Below, one piece after another: positions 2,170 to 29,511 of a stretch of 64,000 nucleotides of DNA. Source of the stretch: an uncultured Candidatus Saccharibacteria bacterium (lineage in GTDB: Bacteria > Patescibacteriota > Saccharimonadia > Saccharimonadales > JALRHH01). Made by a program: the position numbers and the translations under genes. Location: positions 66,609-130,608 of the forward strand of contig CAZXDT010000002.1 of assembly GCA_964639295.1 (NCBI GenBank), given 5' to 3'. The first letter of the stretch is position 1. Every line of letters begins with the position of its first letter. Under the pieces are notes generated by a model, which was given only the letters and a program-made list of their open reading frames with translations, made no database searches and was not told the DNA's origin.

Positions 2170-5067
2170 TTATAAGCGGTACTTTGCGGCAAGCCTGCGG
2201 TAAAGCACCACGCTAATCAAGAAAGCAATAAGAACAAAAATCCAGAGTAAGTAGGGCTTGTTAGCCCTGCTGGAGCTGGTCGTTTCTTCATTATTAGCAA
2301 TTTCTCGGGTGGTGTTAGTGCCTTTAACTTGAGGCTTGGATCCATTGGCTGAAATCTCTGGTTGGTTGGCTATTATCGTATCCTGTGGGGTTGCAATAGC
2401 CGGCTGGGGCGCAGATATCGTAGATTGATTTACAAATGGTGTTTCTAGAACAAATTGACCTGCTTGAGTTGATTCGTCTACGCATTGCTGCAGCTTGTAG
2501 CAAATAGTAGGGTCAGGTTCTTGTGGGCTAGCCACTGTGTCGTTAGTAGCCTCCTCTGCAGAGGGAGTCTCTTCTTCAGGCCCCTGGACTTGCGGCGGGT
2601 CTGCTGGGGTTTGCCCTTCTGGACCTGGATCATTTGTCACGACCAATGGTGGGAGTAGCGGCTCAACTTGTACAAGGGTTGGCTGGCTGGACCCTCCGTC
2701 CGTTACCACTCGAGTACCCAACGAAGTAAGTCCTGATCCCGCCGACAGAGTTAGGGCTCCTTCTGTTAGGTCAGCGCTTACGAGAGGCAGGCCAGAATCT
2801 GGGTCTGTCACTACCAATGTTCCCTGCTCATCTGATTGCCAACTGAGGGTTATTGATCCGTCACTGTTTGCTTTTGCACTAACGTCTGGAACGGCCGGAA
2901 GTGTCGGAGGTTGTGGAGGATCGGCTTGAGTAACGTTCACTGCTAAGTGTGTCTCTGTCTCAATCACTCCACTATCAATCAAGCCCGCTATTCGTACAAA
3001 TGAGGTCTGTGGAGTATCGAAAACGTGTTCTACAACGGGCCCGGGAGAGGTTTCATCCCACTGGCCGTCGTTATTAAAGTCCCAATTATAGGCACTAAAA
3101 CGGGCGTTACTCTGGGAGGCATCTAAAATAACGGGTTGGTTTATGCGAGCGCCCAGCACTTGCCCGCTTTTAAAGCCATCTTTGGTCTCAAGCGCTTCTT
3201 TATATGCAATCGTGATGTCCTTTGGTTTATGGCTGAGTACTTGATACATCATGTCGCTGTAGGCGGCTTTATCAAACTTGTCGCGCTGGTTGTAATTGAT
3301 GAATATCCCACCTGTTGCCTTTGCTAAATACTCCAGATCGTTGGCCATTTTTGGTACAAGCTGCGGGAAGTACTGGTTTGTGATCTTGTTTGGAATAACC
3401 ACATCAACGGCAATGTGTTGTGATTGGGCTGCAATAATTGCATCATTTAGCGTCCTGGTGGTCATTTGGATATTGCCAGGCTTAGTTATTGGATTTTTAC
3501 ACTGGTCATTAGTGATCGCTAGATAAACCGTGGCGCAAAACTCCGAATGTTGGACTTTTGGCCAGATATCAAACACACCACCGTTGATATAGCACGCTAT
3601 GTATCCATTTGTTTCTGGAACGTGCATCCAACTACGAACCGTTCCGTTACACAGATTAAAAGAGTAAGTCGTCTTTGGTGGCCTGTCCGTGACAAGTACG
3701 ATGTGCTTCTCTGCCTCTGGACGCCAGCCACTTGCGAAGGCCGACTTCTCTACAGCAACGACATGCGGGTCTGCCCAGTCACCATTGCCCATTGCTTGAT
3801 TACCGAATGGGTAGCGACTGGCGAACGCGTTATACAAGTTGCTTGTAGAAAAAGAGGGGTTGTTAACATTATAGCCAGTGTACGGCATGAATGATTGAAT
3901 GTTATCGACTCTTGGGATGTACGTCTCGCCGTCGTCTGTCTCGCCAAAACCTTTAGCGGCGTAATTTACATTTGGATACACCGAAGAAATGCCTGATAAG
4001 ACAAGATCCGTGTCATAGCGGAACGAATAGAGCGCGTTGGCCATAGCATCATCATTAAGCAGGAGCATGACATCTTTGGGTTTGTTCGTTTCTTCCGGGC
4101 TCTGGTTCCCACCCATGATCGTACCAAGCCCACCTGCCGCCCTTTCAGCCTGCGCAAGCGTCGGAGCAGCCCATTGCATGAGTTCGTTCACATTGTTGCG
4201 CGTAGGTTCAGCAGCATAGCTAGAGTGGGCCTGCCTGTAGTCCTTATTAACACCAGACCATCCAGAGCAGATGATATCTACTCTATAGCAGTAACTTGCT
4301 GTACGTTTTTCTATATCCTCGGGTACATATGGAATCCTTGGCTCTAGCATCCCCTGATCGTGGTTTGTTACATCACCCCTACGCCAAGGGTAGGATATAG
4401 CTTTATCGAATGGGTTCACCAGACTATCTCCGTGCGCCGCAATAAACTTTGGGTCACCCACAAAGCTCACACCCAAGATTCTACTGCGTTCCAATGGCGA
4501 CAGCTGCGCAAGTGCGTCGCCCATAACTTGTGCACCCTGGGAGTATCCTCCAACAACTATCGATTGGCTCGGGCAAGAATTAATTTGGTCTTTTAAGTAA
4601 CCCACTGTTTCCGCCACTCCGTGTTCCACGCTCTCCCGATAGTCACCCGGAATCATAGAGACCTCTGAGTTGGCCAAATTGTCCGGATCTGTAAATATCC
4701 CTACCCCAACAGCCTTGTATCCAACCGGGTCATACTTCCCCGGAAAATCATGAATAGAAACAGGCTTATAGGTAACGTGCGGATACTCAACGTCCAAGTG
4801 TGTCTTGAATTGGTTGAAGAAAGCCGCTGATTCTTTCTCGGCTTTCTGAAAATCTTTTTCGAATGGGAAGTCTAGGAATTGGCTATCAGGATTCTGACCG
4901 GAGCCCCTTGTGAAGAGTAGAAGTAAGTCTTTACACTCAAACACTGGGTTGCTTGGTTCTGCATAGACCGATCCATGCAGAACAGATAGACCCGACAGGA
5001 TATAAAGAACAGTGAGAAGCCTAAAACCAGATCTCTTAGTCTGTGGAGACCGCCAAGTAAACCTCAC
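2170..5067 (-). CDS. Large secreted, C-terminally anchored protein: cutinase-like esterase + vWA-like + PKD-like domains
   Basis: N-terminal signal peptide. Cutinase serine motif GGYSQGAQVMGDAL. vWA-like blocks (VMLLLNDD..., IVLVTDRPP, LAKATGGIF). PKD-like NWDFNNDGQWDETSPGPVVEHVF. P/T/Q-rich stalk and terminal TM helix LLWIFVLIAFLISVVLY. Confidence 0.6.
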   Translation of the reverse strand: MRFTWRSPQTKRSGFRLLTVLYILSGLSVLHGSVYAEPSNPVFECKDLLLLFTRGSGQNPDSQFLDFPFEKDFQKAEKESAAFFNQFKTHLDVEYPHVTYKPVSIHDFPGKYDPVGYKAVGVGIFTDPDNLANSEVSMIPGDYRESVEHGVAETVGYLKDQINSCPSQSIVVGGYSQGAQVMGDALAQLSPLERSRILGVSFVGDPKFIAAHGDSLVNPFDKAISYPWRRGDVTNHDQGMLEPRIPYVPEDIEKRTASYCYRVDIICSGWSGVNKDYRQAHSSYAAEPTRNNVNELMQWAAPTLAQAERAAGGLGTIMGGNQSPEETNKPKDVMLLLNDDAMANALYSFRYDTDLVLSGISSVYPNVNYAAKGFGETDDGETYIPRVDNIQSFMPYTGYNVNNPSFSTSNLYNAFASRYPFGNQAMGNGDWADPHVVAVEKSAFASGWRPEAEKHIVLVTDRPPKTTYSFNLCNGTVRSWMHVPETNGYIACYINGGVFDIWPKVQHSEFCATVYLAITNDQCKNPITKPGNIQMTTRTLNDAIIAAQSQHIAVDVVIPNKITNQYFPQLVPKMANDLEYLAKATGGIFINYNQRDKFDKAAYSDMMYQVLSHKPKDITIAYKEALETKDGFKSGQVLGARINQPVILDASQSNARFSAYNWDFNNDGQWDETSPGPVVEHVFDTPQTSFVRIAGLIDSGVIETETHLAVNVTQADPPQPPTLPAVPDVSAKANSDGSITLSWQSDEQGTLVVTDPDSGLPLVSADLTEGALTLSAGSGLTSLGTRVVTDGGSSQPTLVQVEPLLPPLVVTNDPGPEGQTPADPPQVQGPEEETPSAEEATNDTVASPQEPDPTICYKLQQCVDESTQAGQFVLETPFVNQSTISAPQPAIATPQDTIIANQPEISANGSKPQVKGTNTTREIANNEETTSSSRANKPYLLWIFVLIAFLISVVLYRRLAAKYRL

Positions 5068-9691: not shown

Positions 9692-10783
9692 ATGAAGCTG
9701 CAAGTCACCCAGGAAAATCTAAGCAAAGCATTGGGAAGTGTAGCTCGTGTAGCGAGTAGTCGAGGAACCTTACCTATATTGTCTAATGTATTAGTAAAGA
9801 CAGTTGATGGAAGACTCAGCATAGCAGCCACAAACCTAGATATTGCAATCACACACTACATTGGTTCAAAAGTAAGTCAGGAAGGCTCAATCACTGTCCC
9901 TGCCCGGCTTATGCAGGATTTTGTAAGTAGCCTTCCAAGCGGCGTTATAGAACTGAAACTTGATGATTTAAAACTCCACATCAATTCAGAAAAATATAAT
10001 TCAGTTATTAATGGGGTTTCTGCGGAAGACTACCCTGTCATGCCCGCAATTACAGAAGGTCAGTCATGGAATATTCCCGGTAAACTTCTAAAACAAGCCT
10101 TACAACAAGTTATTATTGCGGCATCAAGCGATGAAGCACGTCCAGTTCTAACCGGTGTCTATTGGCACACCCACGACGGCAAACTACATATGGTTGCAAC
10201 GGATAGTTACCGTTTAGCGGAAAAGTCACTGATCAATATGAAACAAGACATTGATTTACTAATCCCCGCTAGTGCTTTGAATGACCTACTCCGAATCATT
10301 GGTGATTATGAAGAAGAAGTTATCGTTACACACGATGATCAACAAGTACTCTTTAAAGTTGGTGATGTTGAACTCGTAACACGACTTATCGAAGGTAAAT
10401 ACCCCGACTACCGCAAGCTCATTCCCCGAACATTTGCGAGTGATGCAGTACTTAAGCGCGCAGAACTAACCAATATTACTAAGGTATCAAGCCTATTTGC
10501 CCGCGAAAGCGCAGGCAGTGTCACGATTAACCTCGATGCTGATAGTCAGCAAGTTAGTATTAAATCAATTGCGTCTCAAATTGGTGAGAACGTCGCAAGT
10601 GCTACGGCCGCCATTACAAATGAAGGCAGTATCACACTTAATTCTCGCTATATCCTCGATGCTCTCCATGCACTTGGTGGTGAGGACGTAAGACTCGCCT
10701 TTAACGGCAAACTCGAACCATGTATTCTTGCTGATCCAAAAGCCGGTGACTACCTTCATGTAGTAATGCCTCTTAAAAGCTAG
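9692..10783 (+). CDS. dnaN: DNA polymerase III beta sliding clamp
   Basis: 363 aa in the dnaA-dnaN-recF synteny. Typical N-terminus MKLQVTQENLSKAL...VARV and VATDSYRLA motif. Confidence 0.95.
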   Translation: MKLQVTQENLSKALGSVARVASSRGTLPILSNVLVKTVDGRLSIAATNLDIAITHYIGSKVSQEGSITVPARLMQDFVSSLPSGVIELKLDDLKLHINSEKYNSVINGVSAEDYPVMPAITEGQSWNIPGKLLKQALQQVIIAASSDEARPVLTGVYWHTHDGKLHMVATDSYRLAEKSLINMKQDIDLLIPASALNDLLRIIGDYEEEVIVTHDDQQVLFKVGDVELVTRLIEGKYPDYRKLIPRTFASDAVLKRAELTNITKVSSLFARESAGSVTINLDADSQQVSIKSIASQIGENVASATAAITNEGSITLNSRYILDALHALGGEDVRLAFNGKLEPCILADPKAGDYLHVVMPLKS

Positions 10784-10803
10784 AGCTCCGCTACAATAGA
10801 CTT

Positions 10804-11862
10804 ATGATTACCGATATACGGTTGCAGAAATTTCGTTCATATAAGGACGAGTCATTTGAAATTGACCCAGGCGTCAATATTATTGTTGGACCTAATGCGA
10901 GCGGTAAGACAAACCTACTTGAAGCAGTGCTGGTTACTTGCCTTGGTAGCTCATATAGAGCCCGTGAGACCGAGCTAGTCCAATTCGAACAACCATGGGC
11001 ACGAATTGATGCGCGTACGCCCACAGGAGCTCGTACAGTCAAACTAATTACTGAACCTAGTGGCGCAATAAAAAAAGAATTCATCATTAATGACCAGTCA
11101 CTTAAAAGATTACTATTACCTAAAACCGTTCCGGTAGTTATCTTTGAACCAAACCACCTGCAACTTTTGTCTGGTTCCCCTGATATGCGGCGCGAATACC
11201 TCGATAATTTACTAGAGCAATTAATGGTTGGATATGCCACATTACGTCGCCAATATAAACGTGCGTTGGCTCAACGCAATCGCTTATTAAAGCAAGGCCG
11301 CGAACATGCCGGTAGTCAGTTATTTGCCTGGAATATTCGTTTGAGCCAGTTGGGTGCAGAGATTGCAACTGCACGAGTAAACCTAGTAGAGCAGCTCAAT
11401 AAAGATATCCAGGGATTATACCGCGAGCTTTCGCACAGCGAAGCAAGGGTAGAGATTACCTATAGTGGCAGTTGTAAAACAGATCAATATAGTTCTGACA
11501 TGCTACATAAACTCGAGGCTAGTACCGAACAGGATTTTATCCGTGGCTTTACCGCATATGGCCCACATCGGGATGACATGACTGTTATGTTGAATGGTCA
11601 TCTGCTCCAAGAGTCAGCATCACGCGGGGAAACAAGAACTATGTTATTAGCGCTTAAAATATTAGAACTGCAACTTATAGAGAATAACCGTAACGAAAAA
11701 CCAATCTTACTACTGGATGATGTGTTTAGTGAACTTGATGGTGCTCGCCGCCGCGCCCTTACAGAAGTTCTAAAGGGCTACCAAACATTCATAACTACCA
11801 CAGATGCCGACGTTGTCGTCGAACACTTCATGGGTAGCTGTAATGTCATACCACTTGGTTAG
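10804..11862 (+). CDS. recF: DNA replication and repair protein RecF
   Basis: Walker A GPNASGKTNLLEA, signature SRGETRTMLLALK, Walker B LLLDDVFSELD. Confidence 0.92.
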   Translation: MITDIRLQKFRSYKDESFEIDPGVNIIVGPNASGKTNLLEAVLVTCLGSSYRARETELVQFEQPWARIDARTPTGARTVKLITEPSGAIKKEFIINDQSLKRLLLPKTVPVVIFEPNHLQLLSGSPDMRREYLDNLLEQLMVGYATLRRQYKRALAQRNRLLKQGREHAGSQLFAWNIRLSQLGAEIATARVNLVEQLNKDIQGLYRELSHSEARVEITYSGSCKTDQYSSDMLHKLEASTEQDFIRGFTAYGPHRDDMTVMLNGHLLQESASRGETRTMLLALKILELQLIENNRNEKPILLLDDVFSELDGARRRALTEVLKGYQTFITTTDADVVVEHFMGSCNVIPLG

Positions 11863-13148
11863 AAAGAGAGTGAGTACAGCGCACTCTTATTTTCTTCTGC
11901 TTCAACACCACCAGGGACGGTACTGAATAACAACCTACCGTCAGGGTTTAGTGAGAATGATCCTTTTAACCCCTGCTCATCGCCCGGAGTAGCTGACAAT
12001 AACTGTATGCTCGCATTATCTTTACCCACAGCCCATACTCCGGTTCTTGTTAGAATGAGCACTTTCCCTTTATAGACGACCATGTCGGCAGGGTTTTTGA
12101 AGTAGAGAGGAATAACCTGTTCAGTATTATTTGTAATGACAGTGAGGGACTTGTCGGTTAGTACATAGACACTATTATTTAGTGAGGTTACCCCAGTCAA
12201 CGTTTGTCCCGCCGCGGTGAACTCCCTTACTTTATTGCCAGTGTAGTCGTACTGGACTATAGAGTTGGTTTGTGTTGCCAAAAAGTCCTTTGTATTACCT
12301 TCACTCAGTTCATCAGAAGGTGCATCACCAGTAAACCAGAAGATTGAGTCAGGACTTGTGTAGATGCGCTCTAGCTCCCCACCTTTTGGGTGTGTGGTGA
12401 TATATTTTATGGTGTATCCCATGTCATCACTTGTAAACAGACTGTCCGCAGAAAGAAATATCATGGGTTTACCGGGTGTTCGTGAAAAATCAGTCAGTGC
12501 GACTCTTGGCTCCGGCGAATCACTACCCTCGTCTATAGGCTTGAGGTTGCTCACACCTTGTACCTGGCGTGCGATACCACTCTCTCCGTTGTCGACCGCC
12601 TTACTAAATTGTCCAATGACATCCTTAGTTGATTTGTATACAAAGTTGTTTTTATCAAACCAACTAATTTTGGACATATTAGGCAAGCCTACTAACTCTG
12701 GGCGAACTGCCATATAGTCGTCAGTCTTATAACTGATTAATGAGGCATCAATAGGCACAACACCCTGTATAAGTGTGCCTTCGATGAGAGCATTAGACAT
12801 CGACCCGGTAGATATTACTTGAGGAGTTATTGTAGATCCCAGTTCAAGTTTGATCGTCTGTGCTTTTCCTCTTTTGAGTGAGGCGCCAGAGATTGTTTGG
12901 TTATTGCCTTTTACAGACTTTACGTATACCACTGCAGGCAACTTACGAGTACTATATTTTGCTGTGCCAGTGCCAATCTTCTGGAACTCTCCGTTTTGCT
13001 CCGTTGAGAAGTAGATATCAGCCGAAGAGTCCGTAGTTACGGTTAATTTGGCTGGTCGGTTTAACCACAGAGCCACGGCTATAACGACAAATATTAGTGC
13101 CAAAGCACCAAATATATATTTTTTGGGAACGGTTACTACTGGTTGCAT
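11859..13148 (-). CDS. Bitopic membrane protein with a beta-rich ectodomain (last gene of the T4SS-like operon)
   Basis: N-terminal TM helix IFGALALIFVVIAVALWL, then a beta-strand-rich sequence. Good SD (AGGAGGG) 1 nt after the upstream gene's stop. No family recognised. Confidence 0.5.
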   Translation of the reverse strand: MQPVVTVPKKYIFGALALIFVVIAVALWLNRPAKLTVTTDSSADIYFSTEQNGEFQKIGTGTAKYSTRKLPAVVYVKSVKGNNQTISGASLKRGKAQTIKLELGSTITPQVISTGSMSNALIEGTLIQGVVPIDASLISYKTDDYMAVRPELVGLPNMSKISWFDKNNFVYKSTKDVIGQFSKAVDNGESGIARQVQGVSNLKPIDEGSDSPEPRVALTDFSRTPGKPMIFLSADSLFTSDDMGYTIKYITTHPKGGELERIYTSPDSIFWFTGDAPSDELSEGNTKDFLATQTNSIVQYDYTGNKVREFTAAGQTLTGVTSLNNSVYVLTDKSLTVITNNTEQVIPLYFKNPADMVVYKGKVLILTRTGVWAVGKDNASIQLLSATPGDEQGLKGSFSLNPDGRLLFSTVPGGVEAEENKSALYSLSF

Positions 13149-13149
13149 A

Positions 13150-15021
13150 TTACCCTCCTAGGTTGGCATTTCTGGAAGCCTTAAGGTTGATCTCGACGTG
13201 AAGGTGGTCTGTGTGTGGGTTGGGGCCGTCGTAATCGCGCCAACCATCTTTATTGGCTGACCAGATGTGATGATTCCATATAACTCGTTGCACGCCGTAC
13301 TTTGTTGCGTTGTTAATCATGTAGTTCCGTATGGTGTCCCCTACTTTTTGCGTTTGGGGATTATCTGCGCTGATCATGATATCAAGCGCCCTACCAACAC
13401 CGTGTACACTCACCCCAGGCGATGCGGTATTCTGTCTACAGGAATATCCCCCCACACTCGTAACCGGTGGTTTCCACTTATCTTCAACAAATTTTTTGAG
13501 ACTGGCCGCACCTACCGTGAACGTCCCCGTACACAAAGATTCGGTGAAAGCACCGCTCGGTGGTTCATCAACTTTTACATTAAGGTTAGCTGCAAAGTTA
13601 GGGGTTCTAGAACTTGCAGCGGCTGCCTCAACGGCGGCTGCGAGCTTCTGCTTAAGATCCGAATTTGCAATAAGGTTATCGTAAAAGAACTTACTTCCCT
13701 CCGCCTTTGGGTGAGTGCCATCATATGACTGGTTGGGGCTGAGTGACGGAACCATTACATACTTTGCGCCGATTCTTAGAGCATTTTCTTTGATAACGGG
13801 CTCTATGCGTCTTCGTTTTGCTTCAGCGTTTGGCCCCCAAGGAGTCCAGAAGTAGATAGTATCATGCGGTATACCAAGCTCGTCTGCTTGTTTTGCTAGA
13901 TCATCTATATAGCTGGAAATACCAGCTTGGATTTGTGCATCACTGGCCGGCTTTCCTTCCCCGTTCTCACAGTAACTTCCATCATTATAACCACCCGCAA
14001 CAATGATAAATGTCGGACTTTCCTGCTTTACGTCATCGAGACGTTCTTTGAAGGTTGTCCCCCCACAGGGTCCGTTATGGTTACCTTTTCTGATATAGCC
14101 CGAGCCACCTTGAGCGGATAGTCCGACCTCAACGCCACTATCGTCGCGTAGGTAGCCCCACCAACCCTTTCCATGCGCACTCTCATCTACGTTGCGAGCG
14201 GTCATTGAATCACCAATTGCAAGGATTTTTGGTGTTTTTCCTGACTGCTCGGCGGAGTCGTCACCCGCACATTCTACAGACTGCCCCGGATTATCTGTAT
14301 TAAACCCACTTTCTACGCTCACCCCACTTATAACTCCATTTGCTAAGTCTACTCTGGTATCAAGTGTGTCTTTGGCTGGTCCACTTGTCGGTTGATTTGG
14401 GTTTCTTGCGAGCCCCGCATCCACAACGGTCCCAGGCCTCTCAAAAAATGCTAGGAATATCCATGTTGCTTGCCGTAAGTCAGTTGCTTTTTTAAGCTCG
14501 TCTAGCCCATTTGCTGGGAGTTCTTTAAACAGGAATGGCAACTGAACTTCAAGGGTCATTGGGTCACCACCTGCTGCGGAGTCGAGCAGTCCTTGTTGCC
14601 TCCCCCAAGAAGTCCACTGAGCAATACCAATACCAAAACCCTTTGTTGAGTCTGCCTTGTTTAACCGAATTCCTTCTTTTAGGTCTTCTATTGTTGCGAT
14701 ATATGACGGCGGGTTACCTTGTTTACGGGTTGGTAGTGCGCTACTTTCGCCGAGGAGGTTCCCGACAACACCGGCGGCTTGATGTGTTTCTAGCCCCTGG
14801 GAAGTCAGGAAATTCATTATTTTTTCGGTATTACCACTACCAGATAGAGTAACGCCCGCTTGTCCACATACAACAGCGGCAGGTATCTTATAGTGAACGG
14901 AATCCTGATATATTGCTTTGAGGTCAGTCTCCGAGAGTGCAAGGACGGTGCTTGGTAACATCAGTACGACTATGAAACATAGAGATAGTAGTAGTGTAAG
15001 TGGTTTCACTGACCTGCTCAT
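13150..15021 (-). CDS. Secreted three-domain cell-wall hydrolase: phage-tail-lysozyme-like + SGNH esterase + LAS/M15-like metallopeptidase
   Basis: Signal peptide. AAGVVGNLLGESS...GFGIAQWTSWGR (tail-lysozyme family pattern). SGNH blocks ILAIGDSMTA / GGYNDG / DGTHP. C-terminal SVHGVGRALD (H-x6-D) plus HTDHLHVEI (HxH). Confidence 0.7.
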   Translation of the reverse strand: MSRSVKPLTLLLSLCFIVVLMLPSTVLALSETDLKAIYQDSVHYKIPAAVVCGQAGVTLSGSGNTEKIMNFLTSQGLETHQAAGVVGNLLGESSALPTRKQGNPPSYIATIEDLKEGIRLNKADSTKGFGIGIAQWTSWGRQQGLLDSAAGGDPMTLEVQLPFLFKELPANGLDELKKATDLRQATWIFLAFFERPGTVVDAGLARNPNQPTSGPAKDTLDTRVDLANGVISGVSVESGFNTDNPGQSVECAGDDSAEQSGKTPKILAIGDSMTARNVDESAHGKGWWGYLRDDSGVEVGLSAQGGSGYIRKGNHNGPCGGTTFKERLDDVKQESPTFIIVAGGYNDGSYCENGEGKPASDAQIQAGISSYIDDLAKQADELGIPHDTIYFWTPWGPNAEAKRRRIEPVIKENALRIGAKYVMVPSLSPNQSYDGTHPKAEGSKFFYDNLIANSDLKQKLAAAVEAAAASSRTPNFAANLNVKVDEPPSGAFTESLCTGTFTVGAASLKKFVEDKWKPPVTSVGGYSCRQNTASPGVSVHGVGRALDIMISADNPQTQKVGDTIRNYMINNATKYGVQRVIWNHHIWSANKDGWRDYDGPNPHTDHLHVEINLKASRNANLGG

Positions 15022-15506
15022 TAGTTTGCCTCGCTACAAGCCACGGGCTTATATATAAGTTCATTTTGAGCAGGACATACAACGTAGATGCTGTTGTATG
15101 TGCCATTTACAGTGCTCTCAAGCAGGACTTTGAATGATCGGGCAGCCTCAGGTATGTCCACAATGAAACTTCCTGTGATAACATCACCCGTTGAAGATCG
15201 AGTAAAACTACCTTCTCTGACGTTGCCTGAGTAGTAGGGTTTTGGGTTCTGAATCTGTTTAATAAGGAAACCATACACCATTTGTCCGGTTGCCGTACCA
15301 TCCTTAATAGAGAAATCGTTACTGAGATTAAGCCCGTCAATACCTGATATTGTGACTGTTCTCTGTTCATCGGAAACCGAGTTCGTGGCTTCGGTTGTAT
15401 CTTGTGTTTTGGATGGAGTCTTTGGTTTATTTGTTGCAAGAATAATCAGTAGCAACAAACAGGTAGCCACCGCCCCGACAAGTATCAGTCTCTTTTTAGT
15501 TATCAT
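15021..15506 (-). CDS. Small bitopic protein (possible VirB8-type scaffold; unproven)
   Basis: N-terminal TM helix LILVGAVATCLLLLIILA plus a ~120 aa ectodomain. Start and stop overlap both neighbouring genes. Confidence 0.45.
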   Translation of the reverse strand: MITKKRLILVGAVATCLLLLIILATNKPKTPSKTQDTTEATNSVSDEQRTVTISGIDGLNLSNDFSIKDGTATGQMVYGFLIKQIQNPKPYYSGNVREGSFTRSSTGDVITGSFIVDIPEAARSFKVLLESTVNGTYNSIYVVCPAQNELIYKPVACSEAN

Positions 15507-18500
15507 TTGTAATCCACCTCTGTATGGGCATAAGTTAGTAGCTTTGCTACGTTTGCCGGGATTGTCCGTGTACCGTACTGACCAGGGTTAACATTGTACT
15601 CTTCGACGACGATCGAACCATCAGCCTTAACTTCGGCTACCATGGCAACGTGTCCTGCACTTGAGTTGGCGTGCTCACCTTCATCTGATTTATATCCAGG
15701 CTTCCCAGGTGCGTCGTTATCTGCCTCTACTCCACCAGCGGGCCAAGAAACAACTGAATATACCGCAGCTGCATGATCTACCTTATACCCGAGCGCTCTA
15801 CCGATGCTAGCTGCGAATACATCACCATTACCCATCGGCTCGCCGTGGTACTTACTTACGTGTTTTACGAGCCTGAACTTTACAAAATCCACACACTGGC
15901 CTCCACAAATACCATACGTTGCACTACAGCCCTTGTAGTCATCGCCCATGACCGATGTACCAACTTTCGCAGGTCCAGCTGGTAAGCTAAGCGTTACATA
16001 AACTGGGGCGTGGTCAGAAGCTTGGGAAATAATGCCTGTTTCTGGTTTGCGCGTCCAGCCACTTGCCTTAAGACTACTTGGACCTGCTACAAATATATGG
16101 TCGACACCCCTACCTTTTTCCTGGCCAGTTGAGGGTTTGCCATCTGCGAGAAGACTTGTGTTTTGGAGTACACCACTAGAGTTAAATACATCAATAGCAG
16201 GCTGCCAGTTAAGGCCAATATCTCCACCCGTCAGTACAATGCTTGTATCATCGGCTTTTGTATTTACCCAATCCAGCGTTTTTTGAGCTGCTTCTCGGGT
16301 ATGAGCGGGCGATCCGTTAAATTGCGGGTAGGATGAGTAATGAAGTGGCATAGCATATACCATCTGTCCGGAAGTCATTCGCAGGCCCACCCACGGAGTT
16401 GGGCCGTATCTTCCTCCTCCGCTCCACTGATTAGATGTACCACCATCAACTTTATTCATAGTTTGTGTATTCCAGAAAACGGCGAATTCCCTATTCATTA
16501 CGCCTTCATAGCCACGCGGAGCTAACTCTGCTTTGAGTAGACTAAACATAACATCGGTAGTTTCATTAATCATTACAACGTCAAACTTAGGATTGTTAAG
16601 ATTGGTTGAATCATCACCAGAAATGATCCGTGCTTGTAGTTTTGCACGTGCTTGAGAACAAGCGAAAGTGTTTGTCATTCCCAGATTAGCGCAAGCGGCC
16701 CCTGCGTGTTTGTCGTCAGTCTCCCTTAGGGTGTTGTATGTGCCTACCGTCAGACTGCCTCCTGCTATTGAAGAACTTCCGGAGCTGTTCCCTGTTTGGT
16801 CGCCCAGTTCTTCTTGAGAAAGCAGAGAGTCGTCATACATGGCGCCAGCCATGCCCGTAGAAGCTTCTATAAGCTTACAACCGTTTGTGGTGTCATTTTC
16901 TGGCATCCCAGTATCAGGGTTAACATTATCTTTCTCTGCTTCACCCCAATTCTTAGCTTTGTCGGGGTTGCTACAATCATGCGTACTCCAATAGACTTCC
17001 GGATCCTCCTGGAACACAGGGTCGTTTGAATCATATCCATATTGAGTAACGCCGTACGGGTCCTTGCTGGATGCAGCATCTGCTTTTTTAGTGCCACCAA
17101 ACTGGCTGGTGAGGGTTGCAAACGGGTTTAGTAGTGAACCGGCAAACGAACGCATTGTTCCATTTGTGGTGGTACTTGGTAGTGCAAGCGCCATCTTGGA
17201 AACAACCGAGTATTGGCTAGAGGTATCAAAGACTCGGGCAAAGGTAGACTCGTGTTTGAAATTGTCTTCGTCTTGTTGTCTCATCTCGGCCCTGATCTCT
17301 GCCGCTGTGCTGTCTGGTATCTTATGCGCACCAAGCCCATAATGGGCAAAGATATTGCCCGAAACATCCGCACCACCACCTGCCAGTTCCATATTGCGAC
17401 CCCCGCTTGGGTGCTCTCCGATCACGTCTTTTATAGTTTTCGTTGCAAACCAGTTACCAATATTCGCTATTAAAGGTTCGGCGAGCTTTTCAAGCTGGTC
17501 TACCGCTTGGCTAACCCCAGGCAGGTGCATTACTAAATCGGCAGCTACACCTGAAATAGTGTTGAGTAAAGAACCAATAGTCCCGTTAATAATGTTTGCC
17601 ACCGGCCCTAAAGGGGCGGTAATATCCTTTAAGACACCCGCTAGATCAACGGCAAAGTTTCCTAGCGTCAGAACAACTTCTGGACAAACACCAGAGGTAA
17701 TAAGACTGCCATCGTTACACTTATATCCATTGAACGCCTGCACCTTAGGACCTAGTAAACTCGCAGTTTTAGACGAACTTGTTCCCATAATCTCTTGGTA
17801 TATAGGGGATTCCTCAGCACCCGCGCCGTTTTGATCTGTTCCGGCGTCAGGCCCTAATGAGTCGGCAACGATACCTATATCTGCTGCGTCGGCTTGTCCT
17901 GATTTTATTTCATCGGCGTTCGTCCGGTACATCATATACATAGTGACCATTGATTGAGAGTTGACTACATAGTTAATCTTTTTTAGCGCTGGGGCTGCAT
18001 GCTGCATTGCCCCCACTATTTGTGATACTGAAGTTATCCAGCCTAGTATTGGTATTGAACCACCAACAATTTTACCAGTAAGATCGTTGGTGAATTGCGA
18101 GACTATATGCCCAGTGACCCCTTTTTTCTTAATGCTTTCTGCTTGATCGGCTAATTTTTTTGAGTCGGGGGCATCAAGCCCTAGCGCCACTATCCTAGCT
18201 CTAACATCACGTTCAAGTGCACTTGTTCTTTGCCCGTCGTTATCAGTCGTATCTGAGGCGGTACACGAGAAGTTGCCCAGTGCACACTGGAAAGCAATTG
18301 CGTACATTCCAGCCCGCGGTGTGGTTATCTTATTTAGGAAGTAGTATTTCCACTTAAGACTCCTGGCTGCCTTACGATCTTCCCTGTTCTCTTGCCGCTT
18401 ATCTCGCGTTTCGCAGGCCACGAGGCAACGCTTGATACCGTATTTTTTCTCCAGCAAAAGACCTACTTTATAGCGGTACATGATACGTTTGGCGAATGTT

Positions 18501-19327
18501 TCGTTTTGGAAAGATTTCTTCATCTCCCGCCGGACTTCAGTTCTATTCATTTGTTCGTATACTTTACCTTCGAAAAGCTTCGGGTTTCTTTCGTCGAATA
18601 CACCAGAGAAAAGTTCCATATTCCCTTTACGCATTGAGAATTTATTATTACCGTCTTTCCTGATCTCGATACCCTGGTTCTCGGCAAGCTTACCCTCAAA
18701 GTTTTTATCGCGCCAGGCATTGTATAACTGCGCAACAGGCCCATCACCTGGCGTTACAGAAACACAACTTTTGTTTGCCTTGGTTGTTGTACACTTGGTG
18801 CTCTTGTACATGCTAGGTACAACCTTCTTAACGATGTACTGTCTAAAGAGAGCATCTGTCATCTTGTCGGTTGCTTGTTCTGAGCTGGCATAAAAGTGGT
18901 TTTGGAGGTTGTTGACGATGTGTTGCACTTTCAAGGGCAACAATAGCAACATACTCATAACGATGCCGGCAATAAAACTACCGATAGCTGCCCCGATAGA
19001 GATTTTCTTACCGTTACGCTTGAGTAGCCCGCCGCTTTTCTTTTTATTGGGCTTACCCTTGCCCTCTTCTCTATAACCCGAACCAACTTGAGAACCCTCT
19101 CTGGGGTCTACGGTCGGACCAGATGCGGATTGGCTTGGATTTTCTTCGGCTTCTTTGAGGTCTTCGCCAGAGAGTCCCTCACGTGCAGCAATATCATCAG
19201 CAGCGCCACTGTAAGCAGCATCTTCCATTGCCTGTTCTTCTTCAGGGCTAATAGCTATCCCTTTAAGAAAGTCGGGAGTAGTCGAATCTTTTGCAGTTTC
19301 GTCGTCTTGTTTTGTTGGTGACACCAA
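15503..19327 (-). CDS. 1274-aa membrane-anchored protein with EEP (endonuclease/exonuclease/phosphatase) and C-terminal CHAP peptidoglycan amidase/peptidase domains
   Basis: TM helix ISIGAAIGSFIAGIVMSMLLLLPL. EEP motifs LTVGTYNTLRE, GGDIGLN, VDHIFV, SDHAPVYVTL. CHAP triad context CGGQCVDFVKF ... GHVAMVAEV ... VEEYN. Confidence 0.7.
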   Translation of the reverse strand: MVSPTKQDDETAKDSTTPDFLKGIAISPEEEQAMEDAAYSGAADDIAAREGLSGEDLKEAEENPSQSASGPTVDPREGSQVGSGYREEGKGKPNKKKSGGLLKRNGKKISIGAAIGSFIAGIVMSMLLLLPLKVQHIVNNLQNHFYASSEQATDKMTDALFRQYIVKKVVPSMYKSTKCTTTKANKSCVSVTPGDGPVAQLYNAWRDKNFEGKLAENQGIEIRKDGNNKFSMRKGNMELFSGVFDERNPKLFEGKVYEQMNRTEVRREMKKSFQNETFAKRIMYRYKVGLLLEKKYGIKRCLVACETRDKRQENREDRKAARSLKWKYYFLNKITTPRAGMYAIAFQCALGNFSCTASDTTDNDGQRTSALERDVRARIVALGLDAPDSKKLADQAESIKKKGVTGHIVSQFTNDLTGKIVGGSIPILGWITSVSQIVGAMQHAAPALKKINYVVNSQSMVTMYMMYRTNADEIKSGQADAADIGIVADSLGPDAGTDQNGAGAEESPIYQEIMGTSSSKTASLLGPKVQAFNGYKCNDGSLITSGVCPEVVLTLGNFAVDLAGVLKDITAPLGPVANIINGTIGSLLNTISGVAADLVMHLPGVSQAVDQLEKLAEPLIANIGNWFATKTIKDVIGEHPSGGRNMELAGGGADVSGNIFAHYGLGAHKIPDSTAAEIRAEMRQQDEDNFKHESTFARVFDTSSQYSVVSKMALALPSTTTNGTMRSFAGSLLNPFATLTSQFGGTKKADAASSKDPYGVTQYGYDSNDPVFQEDPEVYWSTHDCSNPDKAKNWGEAEKDNVNPDTGMPENDTTNGCKLIEASTGMAGAMYDDSLLSQEELGDQTGNSSGSSSIAGGSLTVGTYNTLRETDDKHAGAACANLGMTNTFACSQARAKLQARIISGDDSTNLNNPKFDVVMINETTDVMFSLLKAELAPRGYEGVMNREFAVFWNTQTMNKVDGGTSNQWSGGGRYGPTPWVGLRMTSGQMVYAMPLHYSSYPQFNGSPAHTREAAQKTLDWVNTKADDTSIVLTGGDIGLNWQPAIDVFNSSGVLQNTSLLADGKPSTGQEKGRGVDHIFVAGPSSLKASGWTRKPETGIISQASDHAPVYVTLSLPAGPAKVGTSVMGDDYKGCSATYGICGGQCVDFVKFRLVKHVSKYHGEPMGNGDVFAASIGRALGYKVDHAAAVYSVVSWPAGGVEADNDAPGKPGYKSDEGEHANSSAGHVAMVAEVKADGSIVVEEYNVNPGQYGTRTIPANVAKLLTYAHTEVDYK

Positions 19328-19345: not shown

Positions 19346-21250
19346 TTATATACCAGGCATGAGCCGGTTATTAAGATCGATCGTTCCTGTGCCACCCATT
19401 AACTCGCCTTGTTGCTGTATCTCTTGAACCTGGTTTGGGTTCGTTGTAATAAGATTGGTCTCTGTTGGGCTTGCAGCAATCTGAATGTGGACGTGGTTTT
19501 GACCCGCAAAGAATAAGCCCTGCCCTACAGGGAATTGACTAAGTCGCTTCTTTTCTTCACTCGTCAGTTTGAATGTCTGACTCAATACGTCAACAGCGGA
19601 GCTAGATTGCTTGAGAAGTATTTGCATAGATGCATTGGCTACAATTGCGCGACCCATGCGTGATCCCATAAAGTCTTCAACATCCTGAGTAATCGTGGTG
19701 ATTCCAAGATTATACTTACGCGCACGCTTAGCCAGGCTGAACAAGAAGCTTGCAGAATCTTCGTACTTCATCAGCTGCCAGGCCTCATCAACGATCAAGA
19801 TACGCTTTTTTTGGTCACTCTTGGTCTTGTTCCAGATAAAGTTCAATACGATGTACATGGCGACAGGACGCAACTCGTCTTCAAGATCACGAACATTAAA
19901 CACAACCAACGGGTTGTTGATGTCTATATTGCTCTGTTGGGAGAAAATACCAGCGAATGTTCCAGTAGTGTACTTGCGGAGGCGTTGCGCCAGCTGTGGG
20001 CCGGTACCACCCATGTGCAGTAAGGTGTCATACAGGTCGGTTATTGTTGGGGGAATACTACTGTGCGTCAGCGGATCGTTGGTAATACCCGCACGTGCAT
20101 AAGTTTCAATGAGGGCTGCATCAAGGTCGGCTTCCTCGCTTGGAGCAAGTGCTGGCATTGCTGGACCACCGTTGTTAGCCATGGCTGCTTGTGCACCACC
20201 CATCATGAGCCGCAGTAGGCCGTGTAGAGTTATGAGGTTACTACGCAGAGCGTTATCCGCCTCTTCAGTGTCAACGACGGTTGGTAGTTCAAAAGGATTT
20301 ATACGAGTTGTAGAGTTTAGGCTCAGTCTGACGTACGCACCGCCTACTGCTTCGCACATACGTTGATATTCGTTTTCTGGGTCGATGATAAACACTTCGA
20401 CACCCATCATCATGCTCCGTAGTGCTTCGAGCTTTACGGTAAACGACTTACCAGCACCAGACTTTGCAAATACCACTGAGTTTCCGTTTTCCAGGGAGAA
20501 CCGGTCAAAGATAACCAGTCCAGAGTTGTGCATGTTGATACCATACAAAATACCATCATCCTGAGTTAGGTCAGCTGATGTGAACGGGAAGCTCGTGCTC
20601 AGTGCACCGGTGTTGAGGTTGCGGCGGATCTGTAGCTGGTCCATAAGTTGTGGAATGGTGCTATTGAGCCCTTGTTCCTGTTGAGAAGTAGCTGGCTTGC
20701 TGTAGATCAGTTGTTGACCAAGCATAGATTCGACTTTGTGTGCCACAAACTCAAGTTCATCCATACTGCCGCCGTAAATAGTGAAATACAGACCAAATCG
20801 GAAGAACCGTTCCTCACCAACCTGCAACTTGTCACGCATTTCTTCGGCGTCAAGGATAGCGGCTTGCTTGCCCGGATCACGGATACGGCCCTTTTCGGCA
20901 TCTATTTGCAGGCCGGCCTCGAGCTGAGTCACTTTTTTACGTAAGTTTTCTAGGACCACTTGGCTTTCTACTGGGTAGACAAACATAGACACGTCAATAA
21001 CCTCATCAAGGTTCACCATACTACTAAGCCAACCAGTATAAATCTGGCGAGGGTATCCGTAGACATAGTATGTTCGGGCGTAACGTGTACCTAGCTGGAA
21101 GTGCGTACCAAAGAACTCCAAACTACTCGGCGCAATGAAGTCACGAAGTGCAGTAATACCCTTTTGGAACGCCGCCTGAACTTCTTGCTGCTCACGGAAC
21201 TGCTGCTGTTGCGCCAATGCTACTGGATCAAGAGGTTGTTTCCGTGCCAT
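19346..21250 (-). CDS. virB4: T4SS ATPase, VirB4/TrbE/PrgJ family
   Basis: Walker A FAKSGAGKSFT and Walker B RILIVDEAWQLM. The N-terminal domain pattern YYVYGYPRQIYTGWLSSMVNL is typical of monoderm VirB4s. Confidence 0.9.
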   Translation of the reverse strand: MARKQPLDPVALAQQQQFREQQEVQAAFQKGITALRDFIAPSSLEFFGTHFQLGTRYARTYYVYGYPRQIYTGWLSSMVNLDEVIDVSMFVYPVESQVVLENLRKKVTQLEAGLQIDAEKGRIRDPGKQAAILDAEEMRDKLQVGEERFFRFGLYFTIYGGSMDELEFVAHKVESMLGQQLIYSKPATSQQEQGLNSTIPQLMDQLQIRRNLNTGALSTSFPFTSADLTQDDGILYGINMHNSGLVIFDRFSLENGNSVVFAKSGAGKSFTVKLEALRSMMMGVEVFIIDPENEYQRMCEAVGGAYVRLSLNSTTRINPFELPTVVDTEEADNALRSNLITLHGLLRLMMGGAQAAMANNGGPAMPALAPSEEADLDAALIETYARAGITNDPLTHSSIPPTITDLYDTLLHMGGTGPQLAQRLRKYTTGTFAGIFSQQSNIDINNPLVVFNVRDLEDELRPVAMYIVLNFIWNKTKSDQKKRILIVDEAWQLMKYEDSASFLFSLAKRARKYNLGITTITQDVEDFMGSRMGRAIVANASMQILLKQSSSAVDVLSQTFKLTSEEKKRLSQFPVGQGLFFAGQNHVHIQIAASPTETNLITTNPNQVQEIQQQGELMGGTGTIDLNNRLMPGI

Positions 21251-22312: not shown

Positions 22313-22347
22313 CATAAGGTTATAGGTATTAGGTTTTAGGTTGTAGA
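22313..22347. repeat. Heptamer tandem array (5 units, consensus TTNTAGG), left arm
   Basis: cataagg ttatagg tattagg ttttagg ttgtaga, read directly. Overlaps the last codons and stop of the four-helix-bundle gene. Confidence 0.85.
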
Positions 22348-22685
22348 TTTCGGACGAGTACGTTTAGCATCCTTTGGACCTCGTCTAACAGTGCTAATGT
22401 TGCAGAAAGCTCAAGTGTGTATATCTCTTGGCATAGCAGGAGCTGTGTTTCTAACTCTGCAGCAGACCCTTTGGCAATACCCAGGAATTGACAATATTCT
22501 TTTAAGTTATTTCTTTGTTGACCTTCGGCTATGTTGCTTGGGATAGACACCGCACATCTTTGCATCTGAGAAGCTAAACCATATAACTCGTCACGGGGTA
22601 ACTTTTTAGTAACCACGTATACTTGTTTTGCAAGGTCGAACGACTTTCTCCAAACAGTTAGATCTTTATATGATTGTATGGCCAC
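22329..22685 (-). CDS. Four-helix-bundle protein (23S rRNA intervening-sequence protein / Avd family)
   Basis: Family hallmark YKDLTVWRKSFDLAKQVY...LPRDELYGLASQMQRCAVSIPSNIAEGQQR...FLGIAKGSAAELETQLLL. GTG start. Confidence 0.85.
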   Translation of the reverse strand: MAIQSYKDLTVWRKSFDLAKQVYVVTKKLPRDELYGLASQMQRCAVSIPSNIAEGQQRNNLKEYCQFLGIAKGSAAELETQLLLCQEIYTLELSATLALLDEVQRMLNVLVRNLQPKT

Positions 22686-26800: not shown

Positions 26801-27093
26801 TCACCGGCCGTTATGTCTCCCTTCAGAATGTCGTTGGTATTATTTTTTGTTTGTACACCATTGCTGTCGATACATTCCTCAACTGCTCTGGCAAGCACCC
26901 ATTTGTCTGCTTTGGAGGTGACACTGTCTTTACCGTAGGGGCTCGTATCCACGGGTGTGGTTCCACCACCGGGGTCAATAAGGCTTGCGTATACTTTAGT
27001 CGCGGGTAATACAACAGATGCCAGCTGGATAAATACTAGAAACCCAACGAAATATAGTGCCCACGACTGTCTCTTTTTTTGTCTACGTATCAT
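23881..27093 (-). CDS. VirB6/TrbL-like polytopic T4SS protein fused to a C-terminal Peptidase-S74 (endosialidase/tail-fibre intramolecular chaperone) domain
   Basis: Signal/TM, then a ~380 aa Cys-containing ectodomain, then ~7 TM helices (aa ~390-620). An Ala-rich ~350 aa region is followed by the G/A/P linker AAAGGAAAPPAGGAPPAGGAGGAGGAPP. The S74 signature follows: SDQRLKTNVNHIYTTVSGIKIYSFNYLWDPTQAFVGVMAQDLLVKYPHAVV...FYRVNYSVLG. Confidence 0.7.
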   Translation of the reverse strand: MIRRQKKRQSWALYFVGFLVFIQLASVVLPATKVYASLIDPGGGTTPVDTSPYGKDSVTSKADKWVLARAVEECIDSNGVQTKNNTNDILKGDITAGEYVGRLVEGDSSNDAQVDCDPIWKKAHELLGWSTTDTACDTFKYIRETGSCRQGSGLYEIDDRHAYENAEKKDDFYGNAWNDLFQSKYLGGKDIEGALSNGMRYLIYFGDFKEKCGNDEGASGFERFDWTGTDQPIQDKTYHLQWYTDGKVVDSYVITDDSKKGDDTHISGYGMLDNKGDHNDIIKCRDLADNMNALAADLKTDLASDAAAQLQQTGIGGATTGGSEPRENTCEADQGSFGWIGCAVLEAMDGIVGFLDSQVRNLLTVQTDKMTASGGLKKAWGIMRNFAYLILVPMMLVMVIGTALGSNLFDAYTVKKALPRMLSAVLFMSISYYLCVWLIELSNAIGTGIFHLITLAAPGGDVSSLTQLFGGGEGGLFLGLSTGGLLVGAGIGAVTWGILGSFALVTIGALLLGYVTLVIRQVLIILLVVLSPIAILVWIFPGNDKLWTVWKTTFIAMLMMFPLIMVLIASGRFFAATADTIYDGPTGVFIKLIAYIAPYFFIPATFRAGMGAFNALTGAINDRGRGFFDGQKKWRQGQRAEGRAALKAGFDRTRIGSSLVAGRQHRLARTAALGSGALPRTGRYRSELENAEMGHFAAAAAESIKNNPSAAANDDANKIAQYATSKKDFINRYSSSMRVSHEEAERQLAYTEQAYGTVMGSKQMQHTAATASLASASSTDSTAERASWMRNAVSSGIMTDSQAASLVKQSGSLASSAGFGELMGAANGTLSDAGLLAAASNGFNPANSHRMRKGQAGELARHMLGRAEAAEIQHGVGSVEFATAIANAAGIHDMMNGMTPDVREEFATQLNGDAVGGKYIREHEAEMEATGNSAYLDRRKTWSATAAAGGAAAPPAGGAPPAGGAGGAGGAPPSDQRLKTNVNHIYTTVSGIKIYSFNYLWDPTQAFVGVMAQDLLVKYPHAVVKHKDEGFYRVNYSVLGLRMITLEEWTSNPNSIQLPIPASNNKAHSI
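24202..24237. repeat. Perfect 18-bp tandem duplication (gccgccagccggaggtgc x2) inside the G/A/P linker
   Basis: Read directly. Encodes APPAGG x2 on the minus strand. Also flanked by a 12-bp direct repeat tgcaccacctgc (24181-24192 and 24241-24252). Confidence 0.85.
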
Positions 27094-27223
27094 AAGATGT
27101 TGTCAATTATATAGGCATATCATAGCACTGGCCATACTTTTACCATAATAATTATAGATGAGCGTTTACCGCGTACCACCGAGGCTTGCCAGAACGAGCA
27201 AATCACCATATAGTAAGCATCAA

Positions 27224-29053: not shown

Positions 29054-29055
29054 GA

Positions 29056-29445: not shown

Positions 29446-29511
29446 CCTAAGTCCTTGATGACGCAACAGTGGTATGGTATAAGTAAACAAGAAATAAGAA
29501 AGGTAATCTAA

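Follow-up and report, generated by a model that had tools for sequence, protein, structure and literature searches.

A predicted three-module murein hydrolase with an SGNH esterase domain in the chromosomal type IV secretion operon of a Saccharibacterium

Introduction

[quoted passage not shown] An oriC-proximal, chromosomal T4SS of the Gram-positive type is known in Patescibacteria (PMC12102498). In Candidatus Southlakia epibionticum ML1, epibiotic growth requires the T4SS cluster SEML1_0006-0019, which includes neither a relaxase nor a coupling protein (PMC10633639), and the passage of PMC12102498 that cites Wang et al. 2023 describes lysozyme and peptidase homologues encoded just after virB4 as essential for that growth. 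Here we analyse a gene in a 64,000-nucleotide stretch of DNA from an uncultured Candidatus Saccharibacteria bacterium (contig CAZXDT010000002.1; hereafter the window). It encodes a 623-residue protein with three predicted wall-directed modules in series: a phage-tail-type lysozyme, an SGNH/GDSL esterase and a VldE-type zinc peptidase. The gene is of the same kind, at the same kind of locus, as the lysozyme/peptidase genes of ML1, to which it is likened by description. At a probability of roughly 0.6, we read the product as an accessory murein hydrolase of the T4SS, in which the esterase strips from the glycan the O-acyl groups that block lysozyme.

The VirB1-like proteins PrgK of pCF10, TraG of pIP501 and Orf14 of Tn916 are likewise multi-domain murein hydrolases of a T4SS operon, and PrgK also has three extracellular domains (PMC12857230). 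Whereas these proteins use SLT or muramidase, CHAP and LytM domains, the window protein uses a gp13-type lysozyme, an SGNH domain and VldE, and none of the three carries an esterase. Furthermore, their systems serve conjugation, whereas the window T4SS is chromosomal and oriC-adjacent and is essential for epibiotic growth in a relative. Phage phi29 gp13, the virion tail-tip 'morphogenesis protein 1', consists of a lysozyme and an M23 peptidase. Its lysozyme domain is homologous throughout to that of the window protein, catalytic Glu included, and both proteins follow a common plan of a glycosidase and then a LAS-fold zinc peptidase, which is copied exactly by Saccharibacterial relatives with an M23 C-terminus (proteins P0019, P0021 and P0023; loci L010 and L033). 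The window protein differs from gp13 in being a predicted Sec-exported cellular product of a T4SS operon, in having VldE/MT3 instead of M23, and in the SGNH esterase between its end modules. With pneumococcal VldE (Spr1875) and TM4 MT3 it has in common the LAS fold, the H-x6-D and HxDHxH motifs and the Pfam family PF26571. VldE is a septal enzyme under stress regulation that binds the wall through a LysM module, whereas the window domain forms the C-terminus of a lysozyme/esterase fusion. Finally, PatB, Ape and the CE2/CE3 acetyl-xylan esterases share the SGNH fold and the catalytic tetrad and are the best structural neighbours of the window SGNH domain, which differs from them in sequence (15-21% identity) and falls into a small separate subfamily.

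Domain organisation of the protein

The gene and the parts of its product are as follows, each with the evidence used (ORF, open reading frame; AF2, AlphaFold2).
13150..15021, minus strand: whole gene, encoding a 623-residue tri-modular predicted wall hydrolase with lysozyme, SGNH esterase and VldE-type zinc peptidase (ORF list, Pfam, homologues, AF2)
14938..15021, minus strand: putative signal peptide, residues 1-28 (MSRSVKPLTLLLSLCFIVVLMLPSTVLA, then cleavage, LSE; sequence features)
14857..14937, minus strand: conserved N-terminal peptide, residues 29-55 (LSETDLKAIYQDSVHYK...C52G; family alignment)
14317..14856, minus strand: phage-tail-type lysozyme, residues 56-235 (Pfam match 64-200), catalytic Glu92 (PF18013)
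13612..14250, minus strand: SGNH/GDSL esterase, residues 258-470, with Ser272, Gly308, Asn346 and Asp434/His437 (PF13472, PF00657)
13153..13590, minus strand: VldE/MT3-type LAS zinc peptidase, residues 478-623 (PF26571, 9flh match)

The lysozyme module was recognised by Phage_lysozyme2 (PF18013) on residues 64-200 with an E value of 9.6e-24 and 84.6 bits against a cut-off of 28.2, and the family profile matched the phi29 gp13 structure 3csr at E 2.2e-11 over the entire lysozyme domain. Glu92, in GNLLGES (residues 87-93), aligns with Glu45 of gp13 in GNMQSES and is invariant in 48 orthologues. The module also contains the string GFGIGIAQWT, with GIAQWT at residues 132-137, and gave PHROG matches to endolysin and tape-measure proteins. 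By these profiles and alignments residues 56-235 are a lysozyme of the phi29 gp13 type that keeps the catalytic Glu, and muramidase activity is predicted.

At the other end of the protein, the family PF26571 ('VldE') is precomputed on record P0001, which represents this protein, and on 17 homologues. The crystal structure of VldE, 9flh, was matched by phmmer at E 0.0016 and by the family profile at E 7.1e-7, the latter with both motifs aligned. These motifs are SVHGVGRALD (residues 538-547) and HTDHLH (603-608), and they place H540, D547, H603, D605, H606 and H608 residue for residue on H301, D308, H370, D372, H373 and H375 of VldE, each of which is required for muralytic activity (PMC11667670). 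The VldE zinc ligands are provided by His-x6-Asp (H301, D308) and the distal H375, while HxDHxH carries the essential H370, D372 and H373 (PMC11667670). In our peptidase alignment (A3), five His/Asp positions (H, D, H, H, H) were invariant and D605 was nearly so. Pneumococcal VldE has a LAS fold and cleaves L-Ala-D-iGlu on the acceptor strand of cross-linked stems, and 'MT3' is named for motif 3 of the mycobacteriophage TM4 tape-measure protein (PMC11667670); the PHROG matches of the C-terminal module to tape-measure proteins agree with an MT3 identity. Membership of the M15 family was considered and rejected. Neither M15 Pfam model (VanY, Peptidase_M15) matched this module at E<=0.1, and the SxHxxGxAxD string is shared with M15, the family here being VldE. 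Extensin-like_C reached 16.6 bits, below its cut-off of 25.4. Residues 478-623 are, on these matches, a LAS-fold VldE/MT3 peptidase that keeps all six functional residues, with L,D-endopeptidase activity predicted.

The central module was detected on residues 266-448 by Lipase_GDSL_2 (PF13472; E 9e-10, 39.8 bits against 32.9) and Lipase_GDSL (PF00657; 29.6 bits against 23.6). Its blocks are GDS at residues 270-272, GYND at 344-347 and DGTH at 434-437, and the residues of all four SGNH blocks, S272, G308, N346 and D434/H437, are invariant in a 37-sequence subfamily alignment (A4). NCBIfam gave no significant family for the 623-residue protein; a match to the Rv0518-type GDSL lipase (E 0.07, 12.6 bits against a cut-off of 300) was discarded as noise. 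The full-length AF2 model (mean predicted local distance difference test, pLDDT, 80.9) contained three confident domains with low-confidence linkers between them, and a search of the PDB with it returned matches confined to the GDSL part. When modelled separately with the subfamily alignment, the GDSL module reached a pLDDT of 96.8 and a predicted template-modelling score (pTM) of 0.93. Foldseek against the PDB then gave 42 matches at E<=1e-3, nearly all of them SGNH enzymes, with PatB (from N. gonorrhoeae at E 3.8e-8 and a template-modelling score, TM-score, of ~0.57, and from C. jejuni) and the CE2/CE3 acetyl-xylan esterases as the best structures. For the modelled residues 258-470 the SGNH fold, with its three alpha/beta/alpha layers, is certain, and structural matches cannot fix substrate specificity.

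The nearest relatives of this module are stand-alone GDSL proteins of Saccharibacteria-like genomes (38-45% identity). They are encoded at a conserved site, hrcA-grpE-gmk ... lepA (P0032-P0036; L065 6001-7245; L066 4121-5254), and one of them adjoins VanY, Wzy_C and MurJ. These stand-alone proteins begin with a conserved 'KGFAHxLIP + hydrophobic' segment, which is prepilin-leader-like but without Glu at +5. Other relatives of the subfamily are GDSL+CHAP fusions in Actinobacteria, and the subfamily as a whole is small and separate: of 1.84 billion cluster representatives, 202 were matched at E<=1e-3. Since GDSL-lysozyme fusions recur, relatives are fused to CHAP, a relative neighbours VanY, Wzy_C and MurJ, and the structural matches are to PatB, CE2 and CE3, we tie the esterase to wall lysis.

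Two other activities were weighed for this module. It could be a lipase or phospholipase, or a LysB-like mycolyl-ester esterase, directed against the membrane or outer lipids of the host. The GDSL Pfam families do include lipases and lysophospholipases, two of the relatives bear the JGI name 'lysophospholipase L1-like esterase', TesA and thermolabile haemolysin stand further down the Foldseek list, and a cutinase-domain protein encoded nearby (2170..5067) brings lipid/ester chemistry into the neighbourhood. We nonetheless consider a lipid substrate improbable, since the top structures are acetyl-specific glycan enzymes, the fusion partners are always murein hydrolases and the match to the Rv0518 lipase family is non-significant. 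The rank of gonococcal PatB as best structural match would also fit a PatB-like O-acetyltransferase that modifies peptidoglycan instead of de-acetylating it. PatB-type transferases, however, pair with an MBOAT membrane protein as donor (PMC12148441). The operon genes that were scanned showed none, a lysozyme-blocking transferase would be self-defeating when fused to a lysozyme, and the TM-score to PatB is only about 0.57; a transferase is thus very improbable.

The 623-residue ORF begins at an ATG that shares nucleotides with the stop codon of the preceding ORF (TAATG) and follows a GAGG at a distance of 9-12 nt. In NCBI record P0001 the same protein has 603 residues and starts at Met21, whereby the signal peptide is lost, and an automated localisation prediction on that record would wrongly return a cytoplasmic protein. 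We favour the longer start because the orthologue P0002 has the same length and because the family alignment and the signals of translational coupling agree with it. The leader has a basic n-region, a helix in the AF2 model that is hydrophobic over residues 7-21, and an A/LS junction kept across the family alignment; these features point to residues 1-28 as a Sec signal peptide, by which the 623-residue protein would be exported. Directly after it, all orthologues share the pattern A/LS-x-x-D/Q...I-Y...[FYH]-[YD]...C-G, the first slash marking the junction. This peptide (residues 29-55) is of low confidence or disordered in the AF2 model, its C52 is nearly invariant, and it is retained also where GDSL and not the lysozyme comes next (L009, L014 and L046). 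It might serve to dock the protein onto the T4SS or its pilus, or to anchor it there.

Together these findings uphold much of a first-pass annotation of the same DNA, which had proposed a secreted protein with three hydrolase modules in series. The modules were verified with intact catalytic residues by Pfam, by the 9flh and 3csr profile matches and by alignment, the sequence features of a Sec signal peptide are consistent with secretion, all diagnostic SGNH blocks are in place, and domain-wise searches assign the N- and C-terminal modules to hydrolase families. The motifs it quoted all exist, although GFGIAQWT had been copied with two residues dropped. Its label 'LAS/M15-type' was right as to the LAS fold and wrong as to the family, which is VldE/MT3 according to PF26571 and 9flh.

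A conserved T4SS locus with exchangeable peptidase modules in its predicted hydrolase

The gene is translationally coupled within a chromosomal Gram-positive-type T4SS operon adjoining recF-dnaN-dnaA. Overlaps of 1-4 nt couple a 1274-residue CHAP ORF, a 161-residue ORF, the hydrolase gene and a 429-residue ORF. Specifically, the 1274-residue ORF overlaps the 161-residue ORF by 4 nt, and the 429-residue ORF begins 1 nt past the stop of the hydrolase gene. Upstream on the same strand lie the genes for the 1274-residue CHAP protein, VirB4, a TraC-like protein, a PrgI-like protein and a 1070-residue S74 protein, and recF, dnaN and dnaA are located downstream of the operon in convergent orientation. 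The T4SS context stated in the first-pass annotation was thereby confirmed.

A scan of 185,579 species-representative genomes yielded 60 loci, 47 of which belong to Saccharibacteria/Patescibacteria; the nearest relatives are all Candidatus Saccharibacteria/Saccharimonadales. Among the informative Saccharibacteria/Patescibacteria species loci, virB4 was found upstream of the orthologue in 38 of 40 and dnaN/dnaA downstream in 36 of 38. This answers the proposed check on co-occurrence with the T4SS in the positive, and the refuting case named in the first-pass annotation, a gene kept in genomes without the T4SS locus, did not arise. The test is a weak one: the T4SS is nearly universal in these Saccharibacteria/Patescibacteria genomes, and linkage is inseparable from vertical inheritance.

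The Pfam census covered the 47 species orthologues and the window (n=48), with VldE counted separately by our own hidden Markov model (HMM), which matches L005-L008.
Phage_lysozyme2: 48/48
GDSL: 12/48 (the window and 11/47 species orthologues)
Peptidase_M23: 10/48
Peptidase_C39_2: 9/48
CHAP: 4/48
VanY: 3/48
NlpC/P60: 2/48
Beta-lactamase fold: 1/48

Apart from the window, the exact order lysozyme-GDSL-VldE was found only in P0002 (53% identity). As this orthologue of the same architecture lies on contigs of two independent sequencing runs, an assembly or frameshift artefact was ruled out as the source of the fusion. The tri-modular design itself is not unique, in view of the GDSL-bearing orthologues of the census, and the three activities occur together in about a quarter of the species, mostly in other orders. 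In the other GDSL-bearing orthologues the esterase is mostly N-terminal, with these arrangements:
GDSL-lysozyme-M23: L009, L014, L016, L028 and L046 (L016 and L028 by similarity to L009)
GDSL-lysozyme-VanY: L050 and L054
GDSL-lysozyme: L039

GDSL is fused to this lysozyme in at least three domain orders, from different SGNH subfamilies, and its insertion point in the window protein is the inter-domain linker where relatives have an EEP (Exo_endo_phos) domain or nothing. Because the HMM of the window GDSL subfamily barely detects the N-terminal esterases (E about 1e-4), the SGNH module would have been recruited independently at least twice.

The hydrolase and the two large ORFs that flank it in the operon have diverged far more than VirB4 and DnaA. 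In the nearest relatives (L001, L003, L004 and L007), identities to the window are:
VirB4: 91-92%
DnaA: 84-85%
tri-modular protein: 53-64%
CHAP giant protein: 35-42%
429-residue neighbour: 34-37%

VirB4 is 85-92% identical in L001 and L003-L008. Across relatives whose VirB4 is 83-92% identical, GDSL is variably present and the same slot ends in five peptidase families:
VldE: L003-L008
CHAP: L037, L048 and L049
C39-like: L018 and L036
VanY: L054
M23: L046

The C-terminus is also VanY in L031, where VirB4 is 78% identical. As read from these sequences, such peptidase turnover is in the evolutionary style of phage lysins, unlike a housekeeping enzyme fitted to one wall.

Two more mosaic proteins fall into this slot or family. 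The protein at L047 8564-11851 has an N-terminal extension, the lysozyme, a beta-lactamase fold resembling class A (Beta-lactamase2, E 4e-18) and a weak match to NlpC/P60, and that at L055 9275-11824 has the lysozyme, NlpC/P60 and a C39-like peptidase. In metagenome-assembled genomes of Clostridia (L058, L060, L061, L063 and L064), the lysozyme domain lies near residue 600 of proteins of ~900 residues, and a weak VirB4-like match was found near such proteins only in some (L056 and L060). The Clostridia proteins are probably proteins of integrative and conjugative elements or prophages rather than orthologues.

Proposed function and the wall that is cut

In the mechanism that we propose, the Sec-exported protein would work outside the membrane, where the T4SS or pilus channel must pass the peptidoglycan. 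There the SGNH esterase would take O-acyl groups off the glycan, the likeliest target being the 6-O-acetyl group of N-acetylmuramic acid (MurNAc). The gp13-type lysozyme would next cut the glycan strands and the VldE-type peptidase would sever the stems, by analogy with the pneumococcal enzyme at L-Ala-D-iGlu in cross-linked stems, and together the three would open the wall locally so that the T4SS or pilus can pass. O-acetylation at C6 of MurNAc sterically blocks lysozymes, and SGNH esterases remove the O-acetyl group (PMC6174289). The sequence analysis shows the intact catalytic residues of all three modules, operon membership, phylum-wide synteny, the recurrent independent GDSL-lysozyme fusion and the rapid swapping of peptidases. 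Export, the substrate of the esterase, the order of action and the choice of wall are parts of the model that we infer.

Several points weigh against this reading. In the census, 36 of the 48 orthologues are without GDSL, which makes the esterase dispensable for the core function. At L044 a lysozyme-GDSL-M23 protein adjoins uvrA with no virB4 within 10 kb, so that the lysozyme-GDSL-peptidase architecture is not strictly T4SS-dependent. The TM-scores of the GDSL module are 0.55-0.66, and generic thioesterases and lipases score no more than about two orders of magnitude behind the top matches. Moreover, we know of no enzymology for any member of this family, and to our knowledge O-acetylation of the walls of Saccharibacteria or their hosts is not established. 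The L044 gene itself (9965-12586; 873 residues) comes from a goat-gut Saccharibacterium, encodes ~230 extra C-terminal residues and lies also beside a GT2 glycosyltransferase gene.

As to the wall, the established task of hydrolases linked to the T4SSs of Gram-positive conjugation is to open the wall of the cell that makes them. On this precedent the protein could be VirB1-like and act on the self wall only, opening the peptidoglycan of the Saccharibacterium for T4SS or pilus assembly and de-O-acetylating its own murein, with the host wall untouched. In agreement with this, PrgK acts in the donor with its three extracellular domains (LytM, muramidase and CHAP; PMC12857230), the window protein has a Sec signal peptide and no recognisable T4SS substrate signal, and the GDSL proteins most closely related to its esterase stand alone, encoded at conserved chromosomal sites by cell-envelope genes in Saccharibacteria-like genomes. 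However, five peptidase families and a variable GDSL share the slot at VirB4 identities of 83-92%, and the hydrolase and the two large flanking ORFs are only 34-64% identical where VirB4 and DnaA are 84-92% identical. Such turnover would be unexpected for an enzyme fitted to one conserved self wall, and a second hydrolase, the CHAP giant protein, is already present in the locus. We consider an exclusively self-directed role rather unlikely.

The second hydrolase and a swapping of modules that resembles that of phage lysins favour, conversely, a role on the host wall, to which the protein could be dedicated. Its place of action would then be where epibiont and host meet, perhaps on the tip of the T4SS pilus in the manner of a phage tail-tip lysin, and it would drill through the host wall or forage for muropeptides, sugars and acetate, with modules matched to the wall of the host. 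The two end modules belong to lysin families associated with virions (phi29 gp13 tail lysozyme and tape-measure MT3), relatives with an M23 C-terminus reproduce the whole gp13 architecture, and the T4SS is essential for host-dependent growth and is without relaxase or coupling protein (PMC10633639). Against such dedication, delivery beyond the own envelope is without direct evidence, Saccharibacterial walls may themselves vary, and the linkage to a T4SS that nearly all genomes have cannot be separated from vertical descent. The breadth of activities is not diagnostic either, given PrgK (PMC12857230), and for the same reason little weight attaches to the argument of the first-pass annotation that a T4SS would not need so broad a toolkit to cross its own wall. 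We regard host dedication as a real possibility at well under even odds. The annotation's wider idea of a host-wall target is favoured by peptidase swapping and by the virion-lysin ancestry of the end domains, but no result separates own from host wall. In our judgement the host wall is at least an additional target, and of the probability left by the self-only and host-dedicated roles, most falls to a dual role.

A further, speculative step, which we think unlikely as a whole, is that the T4SS-linked lysozyme sets host range like a tail-tip lysin. The N-terminal peptide would display it at the T4SS or pilus tip, and its exchangeable modules would fit the chemistry of the host wall: the esterase or EEP domain would strip decorations, the VldE, M23, VanY, CHAP and C39-like peptidases would each deal with different cross-bridges, and the three-enzyme form would be an adaptation to O-acylated, lysozyme-resistant hosts.

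Neighbouring genes

The other features of the locus are listed here by position.
2170..5067, minus strand: 965-residue protein, cutinase domain at E 1.6e-19 and a weak match to PKD, beside the oriC gene set
11859..13148, minus strand: 429-residue downstream coupled ORF, membrane-anchored, function unassigned, last gene of the operon and convergent with recF (ORF list, Pfam)
15021..15506, minus strand: 161-residue upstream coupled ORF, hydrophobic near its N-terminus and without a known domain (ORF list, Pfam)
15503..19327, minus strand: 1274-residue protein with a C-terminal CHAP domain (E 3e-9)
19346..21250, minus strand: VirB4-type T4SS ATPase (TraG P-loop, E 2.6e-28; AAA_10)
22329-22685, minus strand: 118-residue '23S rRNA intervening-sequence protein' (PF05635, E 1e-35) with a weak bAvd-like match
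23881-27093, minus strand: 1070-residue protein heading the T4SS operon, its C-terminal domain being Peptidase_S74 ('chaperone of endosialidase')
27158-29928, plus strand: five small tandem ORFs with diverged repeat segments that encode hydrophobic stretches (families D1-D3)

The 1274-residue CHAP protein is probably the second wall hydrolase of the T4SS locus. Its orthologues carry PF03372 (EEP) and PF05257 (CHAP). The 1274-residue protein itself has the string SDHAPVYVTL, which resembles the C-terminal motif of EEP enzymes, the family also found in the linker of some orthologues of the tri-modular protein. Homologues of the 161-residue ORF were found only in L001, L002 and L007, with none detected in most relatives; its product might be an inhibitor or partner of the hydrolase. 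The 429-residue ORF is syntenic in relatives, with an identity of only 23-39%.

The PF05635 gene lies between the PrgI-like and TraC-like genes, a position at which L003 and L004 have no called gene. With respect to a diversity-generating retroelement, no template/variable repeat pair was found in 11-30 kb of the window, only paralogous pilin-like genes. The five ORFs at 27158-29928 probably form a paralogous VirB2-like pilin cluster, as reported for Saccharibacterial T4SS loci. The Peptidase_S74 chaperone domain is typical of phage tail fibres and spikes, and the 1070-residue protein, which is 42-45% identical in several relatives, is another phage-tail-like part of the locus. A 966-residue cutinase protein stands at the same position in L004 as the 965-residue one of the window; by analogy with mycobacteriophage LysB one may speculate that the latter is an esterase for host envelope lipids. 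PADLOC defence models gave no match for the hydrolase gene or its two small neighbours. Promoter and terminator scans gave counts no higher than shuffled sequence, from which no operon boundaries could be deduced.

Implications

The family and its link to the T4SS are already known in outline. Of the Patescibacteria T4SS papers, PMC12102498 does not contain the term 'GDSL' and PMC10633639 does not contain 'esterase', and a full-text literature search for Saccharibacteria with SGNH/GDSL gave no relevant paper among the top matches. Three features appear to be undescribed: the presence of the SGNH module, the repeated joining of such modules to the lysozyme in independent events, and the rapid swapping of peptidases at a fixed syntenic slot.

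This gene family represents the most variable catalytic part of an otherwise conserved T4SS locus. We hypothesise that removal of wall decorations together with matched peptide cleavage decides which walls open. If the target is the host wall, the modules would be candidate host-range markers for uncultured lineages, and they would be a source of lysins against O-acetylated, lysozyme-resistant peptidoglycan.

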